Positions 16,841 to 64,000 of a stretch of 64,000 nt of DNA are shown piece after piece. Position 1 is the stretch's first letter; each line of letters begins with the position of its first letter. The notes below the pieces were generated by a model that worked only from the letters and a program-made list of their open reading frames with translations, searched no databases and had not been told where the DNA came from. A program made the position numbers and the translations under genes. The DNA is from Eledone cirrhosa (taxonomy: Eukaryota): NCBI GenBank assembly GCA_964016885.1, contig OZ024742.1:54312001-54376000 (forward strand), written 5' to 3'.

Positions 16841-17079
16841 GGAAAGTAATGAAACGAAATTTCATTTCTTAATATTAGTACGGCTGATACCTAAATATAA
16901 GTATATATACGTACATACATATATGTGTACAGACGTACAGTAGTATGTATATATATATACATACATGCACACACATATATATGTACGTATGGGTTTACCG
17001 AACATTTACTACTGTACGTCTGTACACATATATGTACGTACGTATACATAGTTATATATATATAAATGAAAATAAACAT

Positions 17080-17562
17080 AAATAGAAAACATGAATGGAA
17101 CAGCAAGATCACAACTTACAATTGAGGGCAAAATGAAAACACACACACACATAGAACAAACAACCAACCATGTAAATAAACAAATAAATAAACAAATATA
17201 AACACACACAGACACCCGGATGTAACACATGCGCAAACTAAGCACACAGCACACACAAAAACAAGATGGCGTAGGACAGAACAAACGAGAGGCACAAAAA
17301 CAAAGAAAAGAATCCCCAGTCACTGAAGAGGTTACAGAATGTGTGATGAAAGATCTTTGACAATATATGAACAATCGTCTTGTTGTGGAGCCAACCAACC
17401 AACCGGAAATTTATAAATTCCTAAATTTATAAATTTATTTTATAATAAATTGAAGTGAAAGCAACTGGTGCGTGTGTAACATGACCCTCCCAAAGCACAA
17501 CAATATCGGTTTCAACACACATTATCAGATAAAGAATCTTGCTAAACAAATTCAGAAACGAT
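17080..17562 (+). mobile_element. Family D Penelope-like 3' end/pLTR with hammerhead-like motif (17319-17361); other copies at 37910-38690, 50340-50650 and 59905-60008
   Basis: Near-identical copies. The copy at 50340 directly follows a GIY-YIG coding remnant. Confidence 0.8.
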
Positions 17563-17579
17563 ATATATATATATAAATA

Positions 17580-35478: not shown

Positions 35479-35741
35479 ATATATATATATATATATATAT
35501 AATAAAGAATGTGTGTTAAAGAACCAGGTGAACCATAATGCACCAGAGTACTTGACACTTAGGGTAGTAGAGTGGGCAATAGGAAAAGAGTCACGACTTC
35601 GCCGGCTGGGCTCTGGCCGTTTCGACAGCTAGAACCCAACAAGTCTGTTCGGATCTAGCTGTCGAAACGGCCGGAGCTCAATATATATATAAGTTATTCC
35701 CGCTTGAATCGGAGTTAACCACAGTAATCTACTCAATACAT

Positions 35742-35895
35742 AGCAGAGTATAAAAGTTTTAATATAGAAGAGCTTCTACAGAACTAGAACTGTTTCATTC
35801 ATGAGAAATCATCAGGGAGCACTGATGATTTCTCATGAATGAAACAGTTCTAGTCGTGTAGAAGCTCTTCTATATTAAAACTTTTATACTCTGCT
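35742..35895. repeat. Palindrome of two back-to-back hammerhead cores
   Basis: TTTCATTCATGAGAAATCATCAG-ggagca-CTGATGATTTCTCATGAATGAAAC, with ~74-bp arms. Confidence 0.85.
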
Positions 35896-37905: not shown

Positions 37906-37909
37906 AAAT

Positions 37910-38690
37910 ATATTTCGTTTCTGAATTTGTTTAGCAAGATTCTTTATCTGAAAACGTGTGTTGAAACCGATATTGTTATACTTTGGGAGGGTCATGTTGC
38001 CAATAAGAAACACACGCACCAGTTGCTTTCACTTCAATTTATTATAATAAATTCATAAATTTAAGAATTTATAAATTTCCGGTTGGTTGGTTCCACAACC
38101 AGATGATTGTTTATATATTGTCACAGTTCTTTCGTCACACATTCTGTGACCTCTTCAGTGACTGGGTATTCTTTTCTTTGTGTTTGTGTCTCTGCTTTGT
38201 TCTGTCCTACGCCATCTTGTTTTTGTGTGTGTTGTGTGCTTAGTTTGCGCATGTGTTACATCCGGGTGTCTGTGTGTGTTTATTTCTTTGTTTATTTACA
38301 TGTTACTGGTTGGTTGTATGTTCTATGTGTGTGTGTGTTTTCATTTTGTCCTTAATTGTAAGTTGTGATGTCGCTGTTCCATTCATGTTTTCTATTTAAT
38401 TTTGGTTGGAGTTCATTTATGTTTATTGCCTCATTTATGTTTATTGCCATAACAAAGGAGAGGCACAAAAACAAAGAAAAGAATCCCCAGTCACTGAAGA
38501 GGTCACATAATGTGTGACGAAAGAACTTTGACAATATATAAACAATCATCAGGTTGTGGAACCAACCAAACAACCAGAAATTTATAAATTCCTAAATTTA
38601 TAAATTTATTATAATAAATTGAAGTGAAACAACTGGTGCGTGTGTTTCTTATTGGCAACATGACCATCCCAAAGTATAACAACATATATG
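37910..38690. mobile_element. Two family D pLTR pieces in inverted orientation
   Basis: 37910-38450 is the reverse complement of family D and 38450-38690 is forward. Hammerhead-like motifs at 38120-38162 (-) and 38490-38532 (+). Confidence 0.85.
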
Positions 38691-45974: not shown

Positions 45975-47125
45975 ATTTCAAATCCAAACTAGAAATTTTA
46001 CCTTTCAAAATAATTACCCTCTCCATGCACTCCATCATTACGGCACTCTCGATGGCTTCCATGTCCGAAAAACGGGACCCCTTGATAACCCTCTTGAGCT
46101 TGGAGAAAAGGAAAAGAATTCACACGGTGCCAGGTCCGGTACATAGTGAGGTTGCTCAAGCACGGCGATGTTCCCGGCCATCGACAGACAGTTGTTCAAG
46201 GCATTGTGAACCAGCGCGTTGTGGTGTTGAAGAAACCACAAGTTGTCCAGCCCCAATTCCCCTTTTTGTTTCGCGCACTGAACCATGCAAACGCCGCAGT
46301 AACTCTTCATATACATGCTGGCTGATTGTCTAACCCTGTGGCAAAGACACTATATGGACGATGCCACCCATACCGAAAAAAGCAATCAACATGAATTTGA
46401 CTTTTGACTTCGACTCTCTTGCTTCTTCGGTCTCGGCAACTCCGGACTATTCTGCAGAAGGCTCAGGCACTTATTCTTCTGGTCGTACTCGAGGTTCCAT
46501 GACTCATCACCGGTGATAGCTCTCCTCAACAAGTCTGGTTCGGTTTCAAGACGTCGAGGATGTCCTGACACACCTGCCATGAGCCGTTCCTTCTGGTCCT
46601 CGTTCAACATCTTCGGCACCATCTTCGAGCAGATTTGCTACAAGACCAAATATTCGGTGATAATCTTCTAAACGCTGTTGCAATTCATGCGTTAAGTTAA
46701 ACTGTCAGCCGACGATTGCCTCGCACCATCCGGCTCACGCGCTAAACATTGGCCACATTCTCGTTCTTTAAATGCCTTCCGCCCCTTTAAATATTTTGTA
46801 TTACTCGGAAGCCCGTCGGCACGATATCCCCCTCATCGCCGTACACCTGCTACACTATACCGCGTGCTTCTAACGGAGTTTTCTCCAGTCGGAATAGAAA
46901 CTTCAGGCTGGTTCGTTACTCTGAGGCTATCGCACAACAGCCCAAAACTGAGGAATTGTTAACAAAACCATGCGAAAAAAACATGCAATGGCTGCAAAGC
47001 TGAAATCGCAGTTATGTACTTCCCGGACATGTCTCGTCAAAGTGACGCTATACGCTAATCCCTACTTCGCTCATAGCTCACACAGCACACTAAGTCCTGT
47101 TACGTTTCTGACAAACTTCCTTTAA
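45975..47125 (-). mobile_element. Mariner transposon relic
   Basis: MVPKMLNEDQKERLM, AITGDESW..EYD and WFLQHHNALVH...PDLAPCEFF. Confidence 0.88.
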
Positions 47126-49776: not shown

Positions 49777-49847
<71 letters not shown>

Positions 49848-50029
49848 GTTTCTGAATTTGTGAATATGATAGAATATTGGTAGAGTCATTAAATACTGCA
49901 CACAGGTATACCTAATGTAAGAGGACACGTTGGTTTCGAACTTGAAGGCCTAGAAAAATAATGTCAATTTGGATCGAAGTTGTAGCCTCGGAGTAATACA
50001 TACCCTTTTCAAAGACCTCTCTGTATAGA

Positions 50030-50648
50030 TAAGAAATGCATAATCTGTAAACTAAGCTCCCACATTAACTGTAAAACTAGAAATGTAGTATATAGCAGTA
50101 TAGTATTGAAGGACAATGTAAAGATAAGAATATAGTGTACATAGTTGAGACAGCTCGTAGTATAGGAGAACGGTTAAATGAACACTGGCGAGAGCTTCAA
50201 GATAAAAAAGAATCACCAATACACCACCAACATGCTAAAATAGAACATAAGGGCAAATTAGAGAACATAGAAATAAAAATAGAATCTACACCCAGAAAAG
50301 ATGCAATGTTTAAACAAATCACATAGGCAATAAACATAAATGAACTCCAACCCAAATTAAATAGAAAACATGAATGGAATAGCAACATGACAACTTACAC
50401 AACACACCCAAAAACGAGATGGCGTAGGACGGAACAAAGGAGAGGGACAAAACAAAGAAAAGAATCCCCAGTCACTGAAGAGGTCACAGAATGTGTGACG
50501 AAGAACTTTGACAATATATGAACAACCGTCCGGTTGTGGAACCAACCAACCAACCAACCGGAAATTTATAAATTTAATTTATAATAAATTGGAGTGAAAG
50601 CAACTGGTGCGTGTGTTTCTTATTGGCAACATGACCCTCCCAAAGTAT

Positions 50649-50650
<2 letters not shown>
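50030..50650 (+). pseudogene. Penelope-like GIY-YIG 3' fragment followed by family D pLTR
   Basis: NCKTRNVVY...YIVETARSIGERLNEH...HAKIEH...QPKLNRKHEW. Confidence 0.85.
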
Positions 50651-50700
<50 letters not shown>

Positions 50701-50703
<3 letters not shown>

Positions 50704-52890
50704 TATAGACATAGAATATTCGAAAATATTCTGTATGTTTATAATAAACATTTTGAAGACCTAATCGCTATAGAATAGAATACGTCACGTATTACAATTA
50801 GATTCTCGATAAAAGCAAGGGAAGTAATCTACGCGTTTCATTCTCGTTAGAAATCATCAGGACTACATATCCAGTGCTTTTATCGAGAATGACACAGCTA
50901 GAGACTTATAGAATACTTAGCTGTGTACAGGAACTGGTTTGAAAGAGCGGTTGCCGGTCCGGCAGAAATTAGAAATTGGAATAAATGCTCTGAAATAGCG
51001 ATATATATGTGAATATAGACATAGAATATTCGAAAATATTCTGTATGTTTATAATAAACATTTTGAAGACCTAATCGCTATAGAATAGAATACGTCACGT
51101 ATTACAATTAGATTCTCGATAAAAGCAAGGGAAGTAATCTACGCGTTTCATTCTCGTTAGAAATCATCAGGACTACATATCCAGTGCTTTTATCGAGAAT
51201 GACACAGCTAGAGACTTATAGAATACTTAGCTGTGTACAGGAACTGGTTTGAAAGAGCGGTTGCCGGTCCGGCAGAAATTAGAAATTGGAATAAATGCTC
51301 TGAAATAGCGATATATATGTGAATATAGACATAGAATATTCGAAAATATTCTGTATGTTTATAATAAACATTTTGAAGACCTAATCGCTATAGAATAGAA
51401 TACGTCACGTATTACAATTAGATTCTCGATAAAAGCAAGGGAAGTAATCTACGCGTTTCATTCTCGTTAGAAATCATCAGGACTACATATCCAGTGCTTT
51501 TATCGAGAATGACACAGCTAGAGACTTATAGAATACTTAGCTGTGTACAGGAACTGGTTTGAAAGAGCGGTTGCCGGTCCGGCAGAAATTAGAAATTGGA
51601 ATAAATGCTCTGAAATAGCGATATATATGTGAATATAGACATAGAATATTCGAAAATATTCTGTATGTTTATAATAAACATTTTGAAGACCTAATCGCTA
51701 TAGAATAGAATACGTCACGTATTACAATTAGATTCTCGATAAAAGCAAGGGAAGTAATCTACGCGTTTCATTCTCGTTAGAAATCATCAGGACTACATAT
51801 CCAGTGCTTTTATCGAGAATGACACAGCTAGAGACTTATAGAATACTTAGCTGTGTACAGGAACTGGTTTGAAAGAGCGGTTGCCGGTCCGGCAGAAATT
51901 AGAAATTGGAATAAATGCTCTGAAATAGCGATATATATGTGAATATAGACATAGAATATTCGAAAATATTCTGTATGTTTATAATAAACATTTTGAAGAC
52001 CTAATCGCTATAGAATAGAATACGTCACGTATTACAATTAGATTCTCGATAAAAGCAAGGGAAGTAATCTACGCGTTTCATTCTCGTTAGAAATCATCAG
52101 GACTACATATCCAGTGCTTTTATCGAGAATGACACAGCTAGAGACTTATAGAATACTTAGCTGTGTACAGGAACTGGTTTGAAAGAGCGGTTGCCGGTCC
52201 GGCAGAAATTAGAAATTGGAATAAATGCTCTGAAATAGCGATATATATGTGAATATAGACATAGAATATTCGAAAATATTCTGTATGTTTATAATAAACA
52301 TTTTGAAGACCTAATCGCTATAGAATAGAATACGTCACGTATTACAATTAGATTCTCGATAAAAGCAAGGGAAGTAATCTACGCGTTTCATTCTCGTTAG
52401 AAATCATCAGGACTACATATCCAGTGCTTTTATCGAGAATGACACAGCTAGAGACTTATAGAATACTTAGCTGTGTACAGGAACTGGTTTGAAAGAGCGG
52501 TTGCCGGTCCGGCAGAAATTAGAAATTGGAATAAATGCTCTGAAATAGCGATATATATGTGAATATAGACATAGAATATTCGAAAATATTCTGTATGTTT
52601 ATAATAAACATTTTGAAGACCTAATCGCTATAGAATAGAATACGTCACGTATTACAATTAGATTCTCGATAAAAGCAAGGGAAGTAATCTACGCGTTTCA
52701 TTCTCGTTAGAAATCATCAGGACTACATATCCAGTGCTTTTATCGAGAATGACACAGCTAGAGACTTATAGAATACTTAGCTGTGTACAGGAACTGGTTT
52801 GAAAGAGCGGTTGCCGGTCCGGCAGAAATTAGAAATTGGAATAAATGCTCTGAAATAGCGATATATATGTGAATATAGACATAGAATATT
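50701..52890 (-). repeat. 310-bp hammerhead-bearing tandem array, left arm (7 units + 20 bp)
   Basis: GAATATAGAC recurs at 50701, 51011, 51321, 51631, 51941, 52251, 52561 and 52871. The ribozyme motif is on the - strand. Confidence 0.97.
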
Positions 52891-55800
52891 ATTCCAATTT
52901 CTAATTTCTGCCGGACCGGCAACCGCTCTTTCAAACCAGTTCCTGTACACAGCTAAGTATTCTATAAGTCTCTAGCTGTGTCATTCTCGATAAAAGCACT
53001 GGATATGTAGTCCTGATGATTTTTAACGAGAATGAAACGCGTAGATTACTTCCCTTGCTTTTATCGAGAATCTAATTGTAATACGTGACGTATTCTATTC
53101 TATAGCGATTAGGTCTTCAAAATGTTTATTATAAACATACAGAATATTTTCGAATATTCTATGTCTATATTCACATATATATCGCTATTTCAGAGCATTT
53201 ATTCCAATTTCTAATTTCTGCCGGACCGGCAACCGCTCTTTCAAACCAGTTCCTGTACACAGCTAAGTATTCTATAAGTCTCTAGCTGTGTCATTCTCGA
53301 TAAAAGCACTGGATATGTAGTCCTGATGATTTCTAACGAGAATGAAACGCGTAGATTACTTCCCTTGCTTTTATCGAGAATCTAATTGTAATACGTGACG
53401 TATTCTATTCTATAGCGATTAGGTCTTCAAAATGTTTATTATAAACATACAGAATATTTTCGAATATTCTATGTCTATATTCACATATATATCGCTATTT
53501 CAGAGCATTTATTCCAATTTCTAATTTCTGCCGGACCGGCAACCGCTCTTTCAAACCAGTTCCTGTACACAGCTAAGTATTCTATAAGTCTCTAGCTGTG
53601 TCATTCTCGATAAAAGCACTGGATATGTAGTCCTGATGATTTCTAACGAGAATGAAACGCGTAGATTACTTCCCTTGCTTTTATCGAGAATCTAATTGTA
53701 ATACGTGACGTATTCTATTCTATAGCGATTAGGTCTTCAAAATGTTTATTATAAACATACAGAATATTTTCGAATATTCTATGTCTATATTCACATATAT
53801 ATCGCTATTTCAGAGCATTTATTCCAATTTCTAATTTCTGCCGGACCGGCAACCGCTCTTTCAAACCAGTTCCTGTACACAGCTAAGTATTCTATAAGTC
53901 TCTAGCTGTGTCATTCTCGATAAAAGCACTGGATATGTAGTCCTGATGATTTCTAACGAGAATGAAACGCGTAGATTACTTCCCTTGCTTTTATCGAGAA
54001 TCTAATTGTAATACGTGACGTATTCTATTCTATAGCGATTAGGTCTTCAAAATGTTTATTATAAACATACAGAATATTTTCGAATATTCTATGTCTATAT
54101 TCACATATATATCGCTATTTCAGAGCATTTATTCCAATTTCTAATTTCTGCCGGACCGGCAACCGCTCTTTCAAACCAGTTCCTGTACACAGCTAAGTAT
54201 TCTATAAGTCTCTAGCTGTGTCATTCTCGATAAAAGCACTGGATATGTAGTCCTGATGATTTCTAACGAGAATGAAACGCGTAGATTACTTCCCTTGCTT
54301 TTATCGAGAATCTAATTGTAATACGTGACGTATTCTATTCTATAGCGATTAGGTCTTCAAAATGTTTATTATAAACATACAGAATATTTTCGAATATTCT
54401 ATGTCTATATTCACATATATATCGCTATTTCAGAGCATTTATTCCAATTTCTAATTTCTGCCGGACCGGCAACCGCTCTTTCAAACCAGTTCCTGTACAC
54501 AGCTAAGTATTCTATAAGTCTCTAGCTGTGTCATTCTCGATAAAAGCACTGGATATGTAGTCCTGATGATTTCTAACGAGAATGAAACGCGTAGATTACT
54601 TCCCTTGCTTTTATCGAGAATCTAATTGTAATACGTGACGTATTCTATTCTATAGCGATTAGGTCTTCAAAATGTTTATTATAAACATACAGAATATTTT
54701 CGAATATTCTATGTCTATATTCACATATATATCGCTATTTCAGAGCATTTATTCCAATTTCTAATTTCTGCCGGACCGGCAACCGCTCTTTCAAACCAGT
54801 TCCTGTACACAGCTAAGTATTCTATAAGTCTCTAGCTGTGTCATTCTCGATAAAAGCACTGGATATGTAGTCCTGATGATTTCTAACGAGAATGAAACGC
54901 GTAGATTACTTCCCTTGCTTTTATCGAGAATCTAATTGTAATACGTGACGTATTCTATTCTATAGCGATTAGGTCTTCAAAATGTTTATTATAAACATAC
55001 AGAATATTTTCGAATATTCTATGTCTATATTCACATATATATCGCTATTTCAGAGCATTTATTCCAATTTCTAATTTCTGCCGGACCGGCAACCGCTCTT
55101 TCAAACCAGTTCCTGTACACAGCTAAGTATTCTATAAGTCTCTAGCTGTGTCATTCTCGATAAAAGCACTGGATATGTAGTCCTGATGATTTCTAACGAG
55201 AATGAAACGCGTAGATTACTTCCCTTGCTTTTATCGAGAATCTAATTGTAATACGTGACGTATTCTATTCTATAGCGATTAGGTCTTCAAAATGTTTATT
55301 ATAAACATACAGAATATTTTCGAATATTCTATGTCTATATTCACATATATATCGCTATTTCAGAGCATTTATTCCAATTTCTAATTTCTGCCGGACCGGC
55401 AACCGCTCTTTCAAACCAGTTCCTGTACACAGCTAAGTATTCTATAAGTCTCTAGCTGTGTCATTCTCGATAAAAGCACTGGATATGTAGTCCTGATGAT
55501 TTCTAACGAGAATGAAACGCGTAGATTACTTCCCTTGCTTTTATCGAGAATCTAATTGTAATACGTGACGTATTCTATTCTATAGCGATTAGGTCTTCAA
55601 AATGTTTATTATAAACATACAGAATATTTTCGAATATTCTATGTCTATATTCACATATATATCGCTATTTCAGAGCATTTATTCCAATTTCTAATTTCTG
55701 CCGGACCGGCAACCGCTCTTTCAAACCAGTTCCTGTACACAGCTAAGTATTCTATAAGTCTCTAGCTGTGTCATTCTCGATAAAAGCACTGGATATGTAG

Positions 55801-56622
55801 TCCTGATGATTTCTAACGAGAATGAAACGCGTAGATTACTTCCCTTGCTTTTATCGAGAATCTAATTGTAATACGTGACGTATTCTATTCTATAGCGATT
55901 AGGTCTTCAAAATGTTTATTATAAACATACAGAATATTTTCGAATATTCTATGTCTATATTCACATATATATCGCTATTTCAGAGCATTTATTCCAATTT
56001 CTAATTTCTGCCGGACCGGCAACCGCTCTTTCAAACCAGTTCCTGTACACAGCTAAGTATTCTATAAGTCTCTAGCTGTGTCATTCTCGATAAAAGCACT
56101 GGATATGTAGTCCTGATGATTTCTAACGAGAATGAAACGCGTAGATTACTTCCCTTGCTTTTATCGAGAATCTAATTGTAATACGTGACGTATTCTATTC
56201 TATAGCGATTAGGTCTTCAAAATGTTTATTATAAACATACAGAATATTTTCGAATATTCTATGTCTATATTCACATATATATCGCTATTTCAGAGCATTT
56301 ATTCCAATTTCTAATTTCTGCCGGACCGGCAACCGCTCTTTCAAACCAGTTCCTGTACACAGCTAAGTATTCTATAAGTCTCTAGCTGTGTCATTCTCGA
56401 TAAAAGCACTGGATATGTAGTCCTGATGATTTCTAACGAGAATGAAACGCGTAGATTACTTCCCTTGCTTTTATCGAGAATCTAATTGTAATACGTGACG
56501 TATTCTATTCTATAGCGATTAGGTCTTCAAAATGTTTATTATAAACATACAGAATATTTTCGAATATTCTATGTCTATATTCACATATATATCGCTATTT
56601 CAGAGCATTTATTCCAATTTCT
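52891..56622 (+). repeat. 310-bp hammerhead-bearing tandem array, right arm (12 units + 12 bp), reverse complement of left arm
   Basis: ATTCCAATTT recurs every 310 bp from 52891 to 56611. Confidence 0.97.
53317..53359 (+). ncRNA. Type I hammerhead ribozyme motif (representative; one per 310-bp unit, 19 in total)
   Basis: GTAGTC-CTGATGA-tTTCTaacgAGAAt-GAAAC-GC-GTA-GATTAC. Stem I is 6 bp, stem II is 4 bp, stem III is the palindrome ACGCGT, and cleavage is predicted after GUA. Confidence 0.88.
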
Positions 56623-56687
56623 TATATATATATATATATATAAAAATAAAGATCCGAAGGCAAGGTATAAATTTCCAATCATTTTAA

Positions 56688-61453: not shown

Positions 61454-61524
<71 letters not shown>

Positions 61525-61528
<4 letters not shown>

Positions 61529-64000
61529 AAAAAGATGAAATAGAAAATGCAACTGGAGTCTTATTTAAAAAAATATATATATATTTATTTGGTTCCTTTA
61601 CCGGTTTCGCAGTTCTTCTGCTTTTCAAAAGTAGAGTTGAGATGGAGGATCTGTGGTTTTTCTCACATCTGGTTGGTCTCTGAATGTTACTTGTTTTCTA
61701 TTGAAAAAGTGGCTCGAAATGCCAGGTTTTTCGAGAAGTAATTTGATTGTTTGGTCAATAATTATAATAAATTTCGCGCCAGTTCGCGTTACAAAGTTCT
61801 TCAAACAAGGGGTGGGGGGTCACAGGTTGTTTTTTCATATATGAGTGTTTGAATTTCTTTTTACTTAAAAAAGGGGCTCACGAATGCTTTTTTTAAATAA
61901 ACGTAATTTGATTGGTTATAAATGAAATTATGGCTGTCACGTGTACAAGTTTTCATTACATTTTCGCGCCCTTATTTGGAAATCCATTCTGTAGCCTTTT
62001 TAGAGGATTTTATGATAAGTAAAAGATAATGGTCAAGAGAAATGGGATAGGAGAATTGTTCTGGTTTTGTGAATATGGTTAGTTCGCTGGGGGAGTCAGA
62101 ATTCAGATTTTCTATTGAATAAAGAAAGTAGAGATATGTATGTTTATTTGTTTGCTTGTGTGTGTGTGCGTGTGTGTGGGTGTGTGTGTGTGTTGTGTGT
62201 GTTTGAATTTCTTTTTACTTAAAAAAGGGGCTCACGAAGGCTTTTTTTTAATAAACGTAATTTGATTGGTTATAAATCAAATTATGGCTGTCAGGTGAAC
62301 AAGTTTTCATTAAATTTTCGCGCCTATATTTGGGAATGTGTGTATGTGTGTATTGGAAGATGATTCTATTAGTAGAAATGGGTGAGGGAGTTGTGTGTGA
62401 GTGTGTATATGGGTGTTATGTGTGTGTGTGTGGGTGTATGTTAAGATGGAGAGAATATATATTTTGTGTGTGTGTATATATGTGTGTAGGAAAGTGATTC
62501 TATTAGTAGAAATGGAGGAGTGGAGTTGTGTGTGGGGTGGGGGTTGTTATGTGTGTGTATGGGTGTTATGTGTGTAGGAGTATTGTTAGCATATTAAGAT
62601 GAAGAGAATATATATATATTGTGTGTGTGTGTGTGTGTAGGAACATGATTACTTTAGTAGGAATATTTTGAATGAACATATTTTCCTTACTTATTCGTAT
62701 TTGTTCTGTTGTATGGTCAGTGCAAACGTATGTTAAGGTTTATTTAGTTCGGGTTTTTATTTTCTAAAGTAGAAGGTATTATGTGTGCTGTATGTGTCTG
62801 TTTGGATGGTTAGCATGTTATGGTGTTGACATAATGTATATTAAACCATATTTAATGCTGTTCCATATTTTTAAATAAACATATTTTCCTTATTTATTCG
62901 TATTTGTTCTGTTGTATTGTTAGCGCAAAGGTAAAATGGGAAGACCTGGAATTTGGGTGTCTTATTACTTGCGCATATGTCTAGATGTGCGCTTAGTAGT
63001 ATCTGTCTCGTGGTTGGATCTCGTAAGTTTTGGCGATGAACTGACATTCTGTTTCTGAGTGTGAGTTTAGTTTATCCTTCATTGCATCCTTTACATTTAA
63101 TGGCATAAACTAGATTTTTTGATGAGCAAGTGAAGAGATTGTTTACAGTAAAATTTTGTCCTGATTTAAATGTATACGTGTTGCCTTCAATGAGGTGAGT
63201 GCAGGTTCCACAATTAGAGCGACCACATTTTTTGACACTTGGTTGTGGATTTGTGGTAGGTAATTTGGAATTGATGAGTAATGTTTTCAGTGATTTCGGT
63301 TGTCTTTTGCTTTTGATTATTTTGTGTGACCTTAAATTAAGACCAATTGTAGCGGGCCCACAATGTGAAACACACAGACTGAGCAACTTTATAGACATAC
63401 TACTAAAGCCAATTCTCAAACACATACCAAGCCTTGTAAGAGACGATCTAAACCTCTTAAACCACCTCTCCCAAAATGTCAACAACGACACTATTATTAT
63501 CTCTTTTGATGGAGTGAATCTCTACACAACGATCCCACACCAATACGGACTAGAAGCAATAGGTTTCTGGCTACAGAAATATCCCAATGAGATACCTGAC
63601 AGAATAGAAAAAAGCTTCATCTCCGAGGGATTAAAATCCATCTTACAGAACAACTTTTTTGATTTCGATGGCAGTACTTACAAGCAAATATCGGGGACTG
63701 CGATGGGTACAAAAGCCGCTCCAACTTATGCCAACTTAGTCATGGCATACTTAGAAGTCCAGATATATGAACAGTCCAAATCAAAATACGGATTGAACTT
63801 CCACAAATATTTATCAGAGAATTGGAAACGCTGATTGTCTCATTCTTTGGTCCCACACACTCGACCAACTGAAGGATTTCAAAAACTTAATAAACGACAT
63901 CAATAACCACATCCAATTCACAATGGAATACAGCCAAGATCAACTCCCATTTCTGGACATCTTAAGCTTAAAAAAGACACAAATATTGAAACTGACATAC
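61525..64000 (-). mobile_element. Penelope-like element, same family as 28680-34302, with internal inversion at 63328
   Basis: The pLTR and GIY-YIG part is on - (KCGRSNCGTC..NLVYAIKCKGC). The RT part from DLKLRPIVAGP is on + and runs off the window. Confidence 0.92.

Follow-up and report, generated by a model that had tools for sequence, protein, structure and literature searches.

Several described systems stand close to the element reported here. Metazoan non-LTR (long terminal repeat) retrozymes, among them Rtz_331/353 of axolotl and those of mussel and coral (PMC7229834; the 2026 preprint 10.64898/2026.07.22.740005), are non-coding tandem units of 150-450 bp with a GC content below 50%, each carrying one type I hammerhead ribozyme with a weak palindromic stem III, in genomes that also contain Penelope-like elements, and reverse transcription of their circular RNAs by Penelope-like enzymes has been proposed (“strong candidate”; PMC7229834). 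Insertions of endonuclease-positive (EN+) Penelope-like elements (Neptune, Naiad, Poseidon; PMC8557442, PMC11167929) are defined by a 5'-truncated copy in inverted orientation, a bias toward (TA)n and, at one of their ends, a tail of 30-40 bp (PMC8557442); in vitro the anole enzyme, which is predicted to be a dimer, nicks each of the two strands and extends it, starting on the RNA at two adjacent internal sites, with the tail as the stretch that lies between them (PMC11167929). For Penelope elements, minimal hammerheads paired on opposite strands are also noted (PMC4209133). Finally, the non-autonomous Chlamys elements, such as MRC1, are non-coding Penelope parasites, often multicopy and head-to-tail, that target microsatellites (PMC8557442). 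We analyzed a 64,000-nt stretch of the Eledone cirrhosa genome (assembly GCA_964016885.1, contig OZ024742.1, positions 54,312,001 to 54,376,000; hereafter the window), in which an array of 310-nt hammerhead-bearing units combines the composition of the first of these systems with the insertion signature of the second.

Tandem Repeats Finder and an exact walk along the sequence resolved the array at 50700-56622 into two blocks of period 310 in opposite orientation. The original prediction of about 19 identical monomers thus stood as to period and number of motifs but not as to arrangement, which is not one tandem but seven minus-strand and twelve plus-strand units joined head-to-head. This inversion, missed in the first reading, is the most informative feature of the array, whose parts are as follows.

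50653..50700: left (TA)n target tract.
50700..52890, minus strand: left arm, 7.07 units with 7 hammerhead motifs and zero differences between units; its RNA-sense 3' end is at unit position 285 (site A), facing the left flank, and its 5' end at unit position 265.
52889..52890: head-to-head junction, a 2-nt overlap (TT) representing microhomology.
52889..56622, plus strand: right arm, 12.05 units with 12 hammerhead motifs and the single variant 53023 C>T; its 5' end is at unit position 1 and its 3' end at unit position 14 (site B), facing the right flank.
56623..56641: right (TA)n target tract.
53199..53508, plus strand: reference unit, from which unit positions 1-310 are counted.
53471..53492, plus strand: site A, spanning unit 273-294 with its mode at 285, the first cluster of 3' ends.
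53510..53525, plus strand: site B, unit 2-17, mode 10, the second cluster of 3' ends; the stretch from A to B is the tail.

The unit contains 107 G+C in 310 bp, has no LTR layout and, as originally predicted, lacks an open reading frame (ORF): on the 310-nt circle the longest stop-free frame has 59 codons and the longest ATG frame 30, which ruled out a coding circle. Neither a reverse transcriptase (RT) nor a GIY-YIG ORF was found in it, as an autonomous Penelope-like element would require. All 19 units in the window carry a type I hammerhead motif, on one strand of the unit only, and the one difference among them, 53023 C>T (unit 135), creates a U-G pair in stem II, in agreement with the earlier description of this variant.

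The window array lies on contig C3 of a 3.0-Gb host genome, in which a 29-nt core of the window type had 4,257 exact matches (0 for the reversed control), unit 224-252 had 19,618, the B end plus TA had 760 on the forward strand (reverse-strand matches were multiply counted) and one form of the A end had 721. At 10 units per locus, we estimate about 2,000 dispersed loci, amounting to about 6 Mb. We parsed 69 loci, namely the window array and 68 on contig C1 picked by the core (10), the B end (38) or the A end (20), of which 62 were complete and two-armed, 5 were one-armed and 2 incomplete, with the duplicated locus L100 counted once. Only 70 sporadic differences were found in 211,345 bp across these loci (singletons of L045 were dropped as a hairpin artefact), and the 310-nt family is therefore very young.

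The 62 complete two-armed loci, without exception, were head-to-head with their RNA-sense 3' ends toward the flanks, one of type A and one of type B, in either order (38 and 24 loci); together with the 5 one-armed loci they account for the 67 complete insertions. In subsets picked independently of the end under test, one A and one B end were found in 10/10 core-picked and 16/16 A-end-picked loci, with a chance expectation of 0.007 per locus, and among the first 100 matches listed, A ends never formed a minus/plus pair lying less than 10 kb apart. Across the parsed loci the A-to-B offset was 26-47 nt with a mode of 35, corresponding to a Penelope-type tail at one end only. The 5' ends were uniformly distributed along the unit (chi2 p 0.52), with only 2/124 near the predicted cut site, and arms of 0.2 to 27 units stopped at random places. 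Junctions showed microhomology in 35 of the 62 loci, were blunt in 6 and held an insert in 21. Tracts of (TA)4 or more flanked both sides in 66/67 loci, a figure partly built into the picking patterns. Target duplications of non-LTR retrozymes, where there are any, exceed 4 bp; duplication-like flanks of 21-60 bp were present here in 9/67 loci (clear in about 5), any others being masked by (TA)n. As a control from the same genome, 12 loci of intact elements encoding RT plus GIY-YIG were taken; 2 of them showed one end only, and the 10 two-ended loci all paired a tailed with a tail-less arm. The two-armed, two-ended layout is the Penelope signature of an inverted copy plus tail.

The main texts of PMC7229834 and 10.64898/2026.07.22.740005 describe neither head-to-head arms nor a pair of fixed 3' ends nor (TA)n targeting; their supplements, in particular model figure S9 (which may bear on this), lie beyond that statement, and no paper on two-armed retrozyme insertions was found in the literature searched, which covered few subscription papers. 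Compared with EN+ Penelope-like elements, the 310-nt unit has no ORF, its arms are multi-round copies of one short unit, and no homology to a pseudo-LTR (pLTR) was found in the one young family compared. Chlamys elements, in contrast, resemble their partner at the 3' end, mostly lack hammerheads and, in the account of PMC8557442, belong to green algae. Among the described metazoan non-LTR retrozymes, HHR_Amex2 has the U.U at stem II that the 310-nt unit also has; the unit combines this mismatch with a 1-bp stem III and is described here from DNA, RNA having been shown for the others (PMC7229834; 10.64898/2026.07.22.740005).

LINE-1 twin priming produces the same head-to-head polarity and microhomology junctions as these loci. 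Its arms are, however, consecutive non-overlapping parts of a poly(A) RNA, whereas here the starts lie about 35 nt apart and the same unit is covered repeatedly.

The predicted ribozyme comprises the following parts.

53317..53359, plus strand: type I hammerhead motif, with stem I at 53317-53322/53354-53359 (6 bp) and a predicted cut after 53353.
53323-53329 and 53344-53347, plus strand: hammerhead core (unit 125-131 and 146-149).
Unit 132/145: U.U, on which the 4 bp of stem II are stacked.
53347-53352: six-base palindrome carrying the single pair of stem III, with the predicted cut after unit 155.
53293-53308/53366-53381 (53293..53381), plus strand: ribozyme-bearing 16-bp stem (z -5.85 for 53290-53385).

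These parts match the canonical metazoan type I layout, with a helix I of 6 bp, a helix II of 4 bp and a helix III of 1-2 bp with a palindromic loop, a class said to act as dimers (PMC4209133), and the self-duplex of the palindrome was computed at -9.5 kcal/mol. The motif was found in 19/19 copies, and it agreed with the original prediction in this as in the cuts predicted after 53043 and 53353 and the U.U at the base of stem II; the U.U takes the place of the canonical G10.1-C11.1 pair, A-U is fixed instead in 11/69 loci, and axolotl HHR_Amex2, with the same U.U, cleaves to 22% as a monomer and far better as a dimer (PMC7229834). The circular fold of the unit reached -67.8 kcal/mol (z -4.2), and 0/60 shuffles were as low.

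Scored on the pairs of this predicted fold, inherited variants show selection on the ribozyme fold. Only 1/25 inherited variants broke a pair or the core, compared with 33/70 sporadic variants (p 6e-5) and 424/930 of all possible changes; within the ribozyme, damaging variants numbered 0/9 inherited versus 8/9 sporadic (p 4e-4). The pairs kept by inherited variants were mostly G.U wobbles, which are valid on the ribozyme strand only. Inherited ribozyme changes fell at the free position 7, in loop II or at wobble pairs, or converted U.U to A-U. At core positions alone, the counts (0/25 inherited, 4/70 sporadic) are too small to decide. A 95% subfamily agrees, 11/12 of its substitutions being unpaired or pair-keeping. 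A>G changes made up 7/25 inherited variants (p 0.013 for excess), for which adenosine-to-inosine (A-to-I) editing and selection for wobble pairs are possible explanations that fit alike.

Among the 69 loci we distinguished 25 substitution haplotypes, each fixed through both arms, as in 17/17 units of both L055 and L074. We infer that for a rare variant to become fixed in as many as 17 units spanning both arms, the sequence must have passed through a bottleneck of one unit and then been multiplied, as copying of a circle would do. Where sequence was covered by both arms, 38 sporadic variants were unshared and 2 shared, a count that leaves out one-armed loci and 8 complex or incomplete ones. Variants recurring within one arm were seen in L052+L061 (7 units apart), L062+L050 (5) and L053 (2 and 4), and would reflect either multimeric circles or later duplication.

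On this evidence we are highly confident that the 310-nt unit behaves as a Penelope-mobilised non-LTR retrozyme, and it displays the testable features of that family. The very recent multimeric insertion of a hammerhead-bearing retrozyme, rather than an ordinary satellite, proposed in the original prediction is borne out by the dispersal of near-identical arrays over about 2,000 loci instead of a single satellite block, by the Penelope-type ends and by the selection on the fold; nor did any locus examined, 20/20 in one set and all in the others, turn out to be the pLTR of a coding element. The term replicon, in the sense of RNA-to-RNA replication, found no support, a DNA phase being evident and the motif lying on one strand only.

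We consider it probable that the main template is a self-cut RNA circle, copied from both ends of a (TA)n cut by a Penelope-like RT/endonuclease. The array would first be transcribed; two hammerheads would then pair via their palindromic stems III and cleave after GUA, and a host ligase would close the monomer into a circle, steps modelled on PMC7229834 and PMC4209133. The enzyme would nick both strands of the (TA)n target, with one 3'-OH priming at site B and the second some 35 nt further upstream, at site A; these ends are observed, and the priming is patterned on PMC11167929. Each cDNA would run 0.2-27 units round the circle, as the observed arm lengths indicate, until a random stop, and the cDNA ends would be joined by microhomology or short inserts of the kind seen at the junctions.

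Several observations weigh against this account. Self-cleavage and a circle of the 310-nt unit are predictions from DNA, and the ribozyme is weak on paper, with its 1-bp stem III and U.U at stem II and a fold lying 6.7 kcal/mol above the circle minimum. Rfam gave zero matches at gathering score for the array and none at E 10 over 1.2 kb; when 106 nt were submitted alone, the suggested check against hammerhead models returned Hammerhead_HH9 as top match, aligned over its full length but at 15.8 bits (E 0.11), under the gathering score of 52. In vitro, 8/9 predicted Xenopus retrozyme dimers showed no cleavage (10.64898/2026.07.22.740005), and the anole element was independent of its ribozyme (PMC11167929). 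The parsed loci are a non-random sample, 68/69 coming from one contig and selected by exact patterns. The search for a coding partner, in which one young family was compared with the unit, found none; exclusion patterns led to further retrozymes, as did odd singletons. An RT query of the genome led to a young family with a 775-codon RT plus GIY-YIG frame and many open copies, of Neptune type by a CxxC motif read by eye; its tail is about 65 nt, no hammerhead was seen in the stretches scanned, all that it has in common with the unit is a motif of 8 nt at the B end, and the end similarity of this one young family was not significant (p 0.13). Finally, in L076, L085 and L095 some variants are common only to the 3'-most units of both arms; here a multimer must have been read by both arms from the same unit, since a monomer circle cannot give this pattern. 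Both arms of L095 begin with two units of one haplotype and then switch, L064 switches haplotype in one arm, and 8/69 loci are mixed. The template was thus likely mostly a circle and at times a multimer (3 loci), with an uncut multimer used, very roughly, in a minority of about 1 in 10 events.

These same haplotype patterns of L095, L076 and L085, and the variants repeated within an arm in L052, L053 and L062+50, are what would be expected if priming were double but the template usually an uncut linear multimer, with circles rare or absent and arrays growing by DNA-level exchange. The in vitro substrate was likewise unprocessed RNA (PMC11167929), and the 38 unshared variants say nothing of the template if they arose after insertion. 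We nevertheless judge this unlikely: linear copying can only make arrays shorter, yet there are arms as long as 27 units whose ends are intact, fixation of rare variants extends over as many as 17 units in both arms, and selection on the ribozyme fold implies that the ribozyme acts in the cycle.

Single priming, with the cDNA end folding back to copy itself and an endonuclease resolving the hairpin into a second arm and tail, predicts the same polarity and fits junctions with 1-4 nt microhomology and templated inserts, the presence in both arms of an L052 variant near the junction, and the suggestion of endonuclease resolution as the tail source (PMC8557442). A copied arm should, however, be the shorter one, whereas the A arm exceeded the B arm in 32 loci and fell short of it in 30; the A arm of L076 extends 44 nt further upstream than its B arm, 38/40 variants are unshared between arms, and both strands are extended in vitro (PMC11167929), making fold-back quite improbable. 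That an ordinary satellite or DNA circle spread by recombination or rolling-circle DNA synthesis, its ribozyme a fossil, is very improbable: 10.64898/2026.07.22.740005 favours local amplification, a segmental duplication is seen at L100 and L052 has a 7-unit repeat pattern, yet no process confined to DNA would cause the fixed polarity, the pair of fixed ends, the (TA)n targeting or the selection, specific to one strand, on pairing in the RNA, and the 62/62 head-to-head A/B loci already largely refute it. Sequencing or assembly fold-back artefacts are scarcely credible as the source of the inversions: the junctions are taken from the assembly, yet the arms are not mirror copies, differing in length, end site and flanks, and older diverged elements share the layout.

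The unit also has relatives. A 316-nt family (1,961 genome matches of a 21-mer) has the same two ends and layout as the 310-nt unit and a different ribozyme with a U3-A8 core, a variant known from earlier work (PMC4209133); in many copies of this family the cut triplet has degenerated. Among its loci (L143, L154-L183), units within L157 (L157:574-2642) were 99.95% alike and loci 2-10% apart. A third family of about 321-327 nt (L186-L205) has the same conserved region and a longer stem III. The shared region is the following.

53422..53565, plus strand: putative docking region, unit 224-310 plus 1-57 (144 nt), 75% identical to the 316-nt family (E 2.6e-24).

Because its conserved part coincides with where the arms end, we infer that unit 224-57 serves as a docking region for the RT. 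At window 53390-53445, a CRE-like hairpin at unit 192-207 is followed by a TATA-like box at unit 241-246; together they form a possible internal promoter, which is not retained in the 316-nt family. At window 35680-35890 lies a short two-armed insertion of another family (196 exact matches of a 29-mer), with two ends about 55-90 nt apart and no ORF seen nearby. Its hammerhead-like core agrees with that of the unit at 24-25/28 letters, U.U included, and the family is a possible source of the ribozyme module of the unit. A broader picture, which we advance only tentatively and at somewhat less than even confidence, is that of about 2,000 fresh snapshots in which a dimeric Penelope enzyme copies a single RNA circle, made by the ribozyme, from both break ends at once, the circle being part of a clan, at least three families in size, whose members would keep the docking module and swap the ribozyme module, and RNA-stage changes (possible A-to-I edits) becoming heritable arrays.

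The array was received by the terminal TA tract of an older element lacking homology with the unit.

49847..50652, plus strand: older broken Penelope-like 3' end, a GIY-YIG-like remnant (by eye; no Pfam match) with a hammerhead-like motif at 50475.

Copies of this older family at 37908-38690 (two-armed), 17056-17568 and 49847-50652 have a tail of about 55-60 nt, with hammerhead-like motifs at 17323, 38158, 38494 and 50475. A head-to-head copy of the Neptune-type family occupies window 61500-64000, with its junction near 63328. Another abundant hammerhead-like motif occurs at window 5120 and 5793 and in L079 and L100 (20 matches in the DNA examined). The minus strand at window 46000-46640 holds a putative broken mariner-like transposase remnant, with no Pfam match, and the flank at L082:3440-3640 a repeat resembling short interspersed nuclear elements, possibly those of octopods.

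Words of the unit (64-100%) were present in 20 sequencing runs under 18 organism labels from 17 studies, and 4/24 listed runs were inspected on unit plus flank. Runs X4, X10 and X20 contained the unit as a contig of 340 nt, covered to a depth of 14-48 and differing from it once in each run, two of these differences also segregating in the host genome, and contained the host flank repeat at 20-50 times the unit depth; raw reads of X23, which shares organism label and study with the best holder, gave 0 reads on unit or flank. RNA runs did not figure among the listed holders, which speaks neither for nor against transfer. Metagenome and viral contigs had no match to the unit. Horizontal spread was not supported and is not claimed, because trace host-lineage DNA or related hosts explain the runs equally well.

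The Penelope signature is present in every complete two-armed case, where the retrozyme papers had only proposed the link. The family shows exactly where copying of the RNA starts and offers a candidate docking region of 144 nt, and therefore a 310-nt substrate can serve to test both how the circle would reach the genome and why Penelope elements have their tandem and inverted structure. An RT that writes circular RNA into TA repeats would, if confirmed, be useful as a tool.

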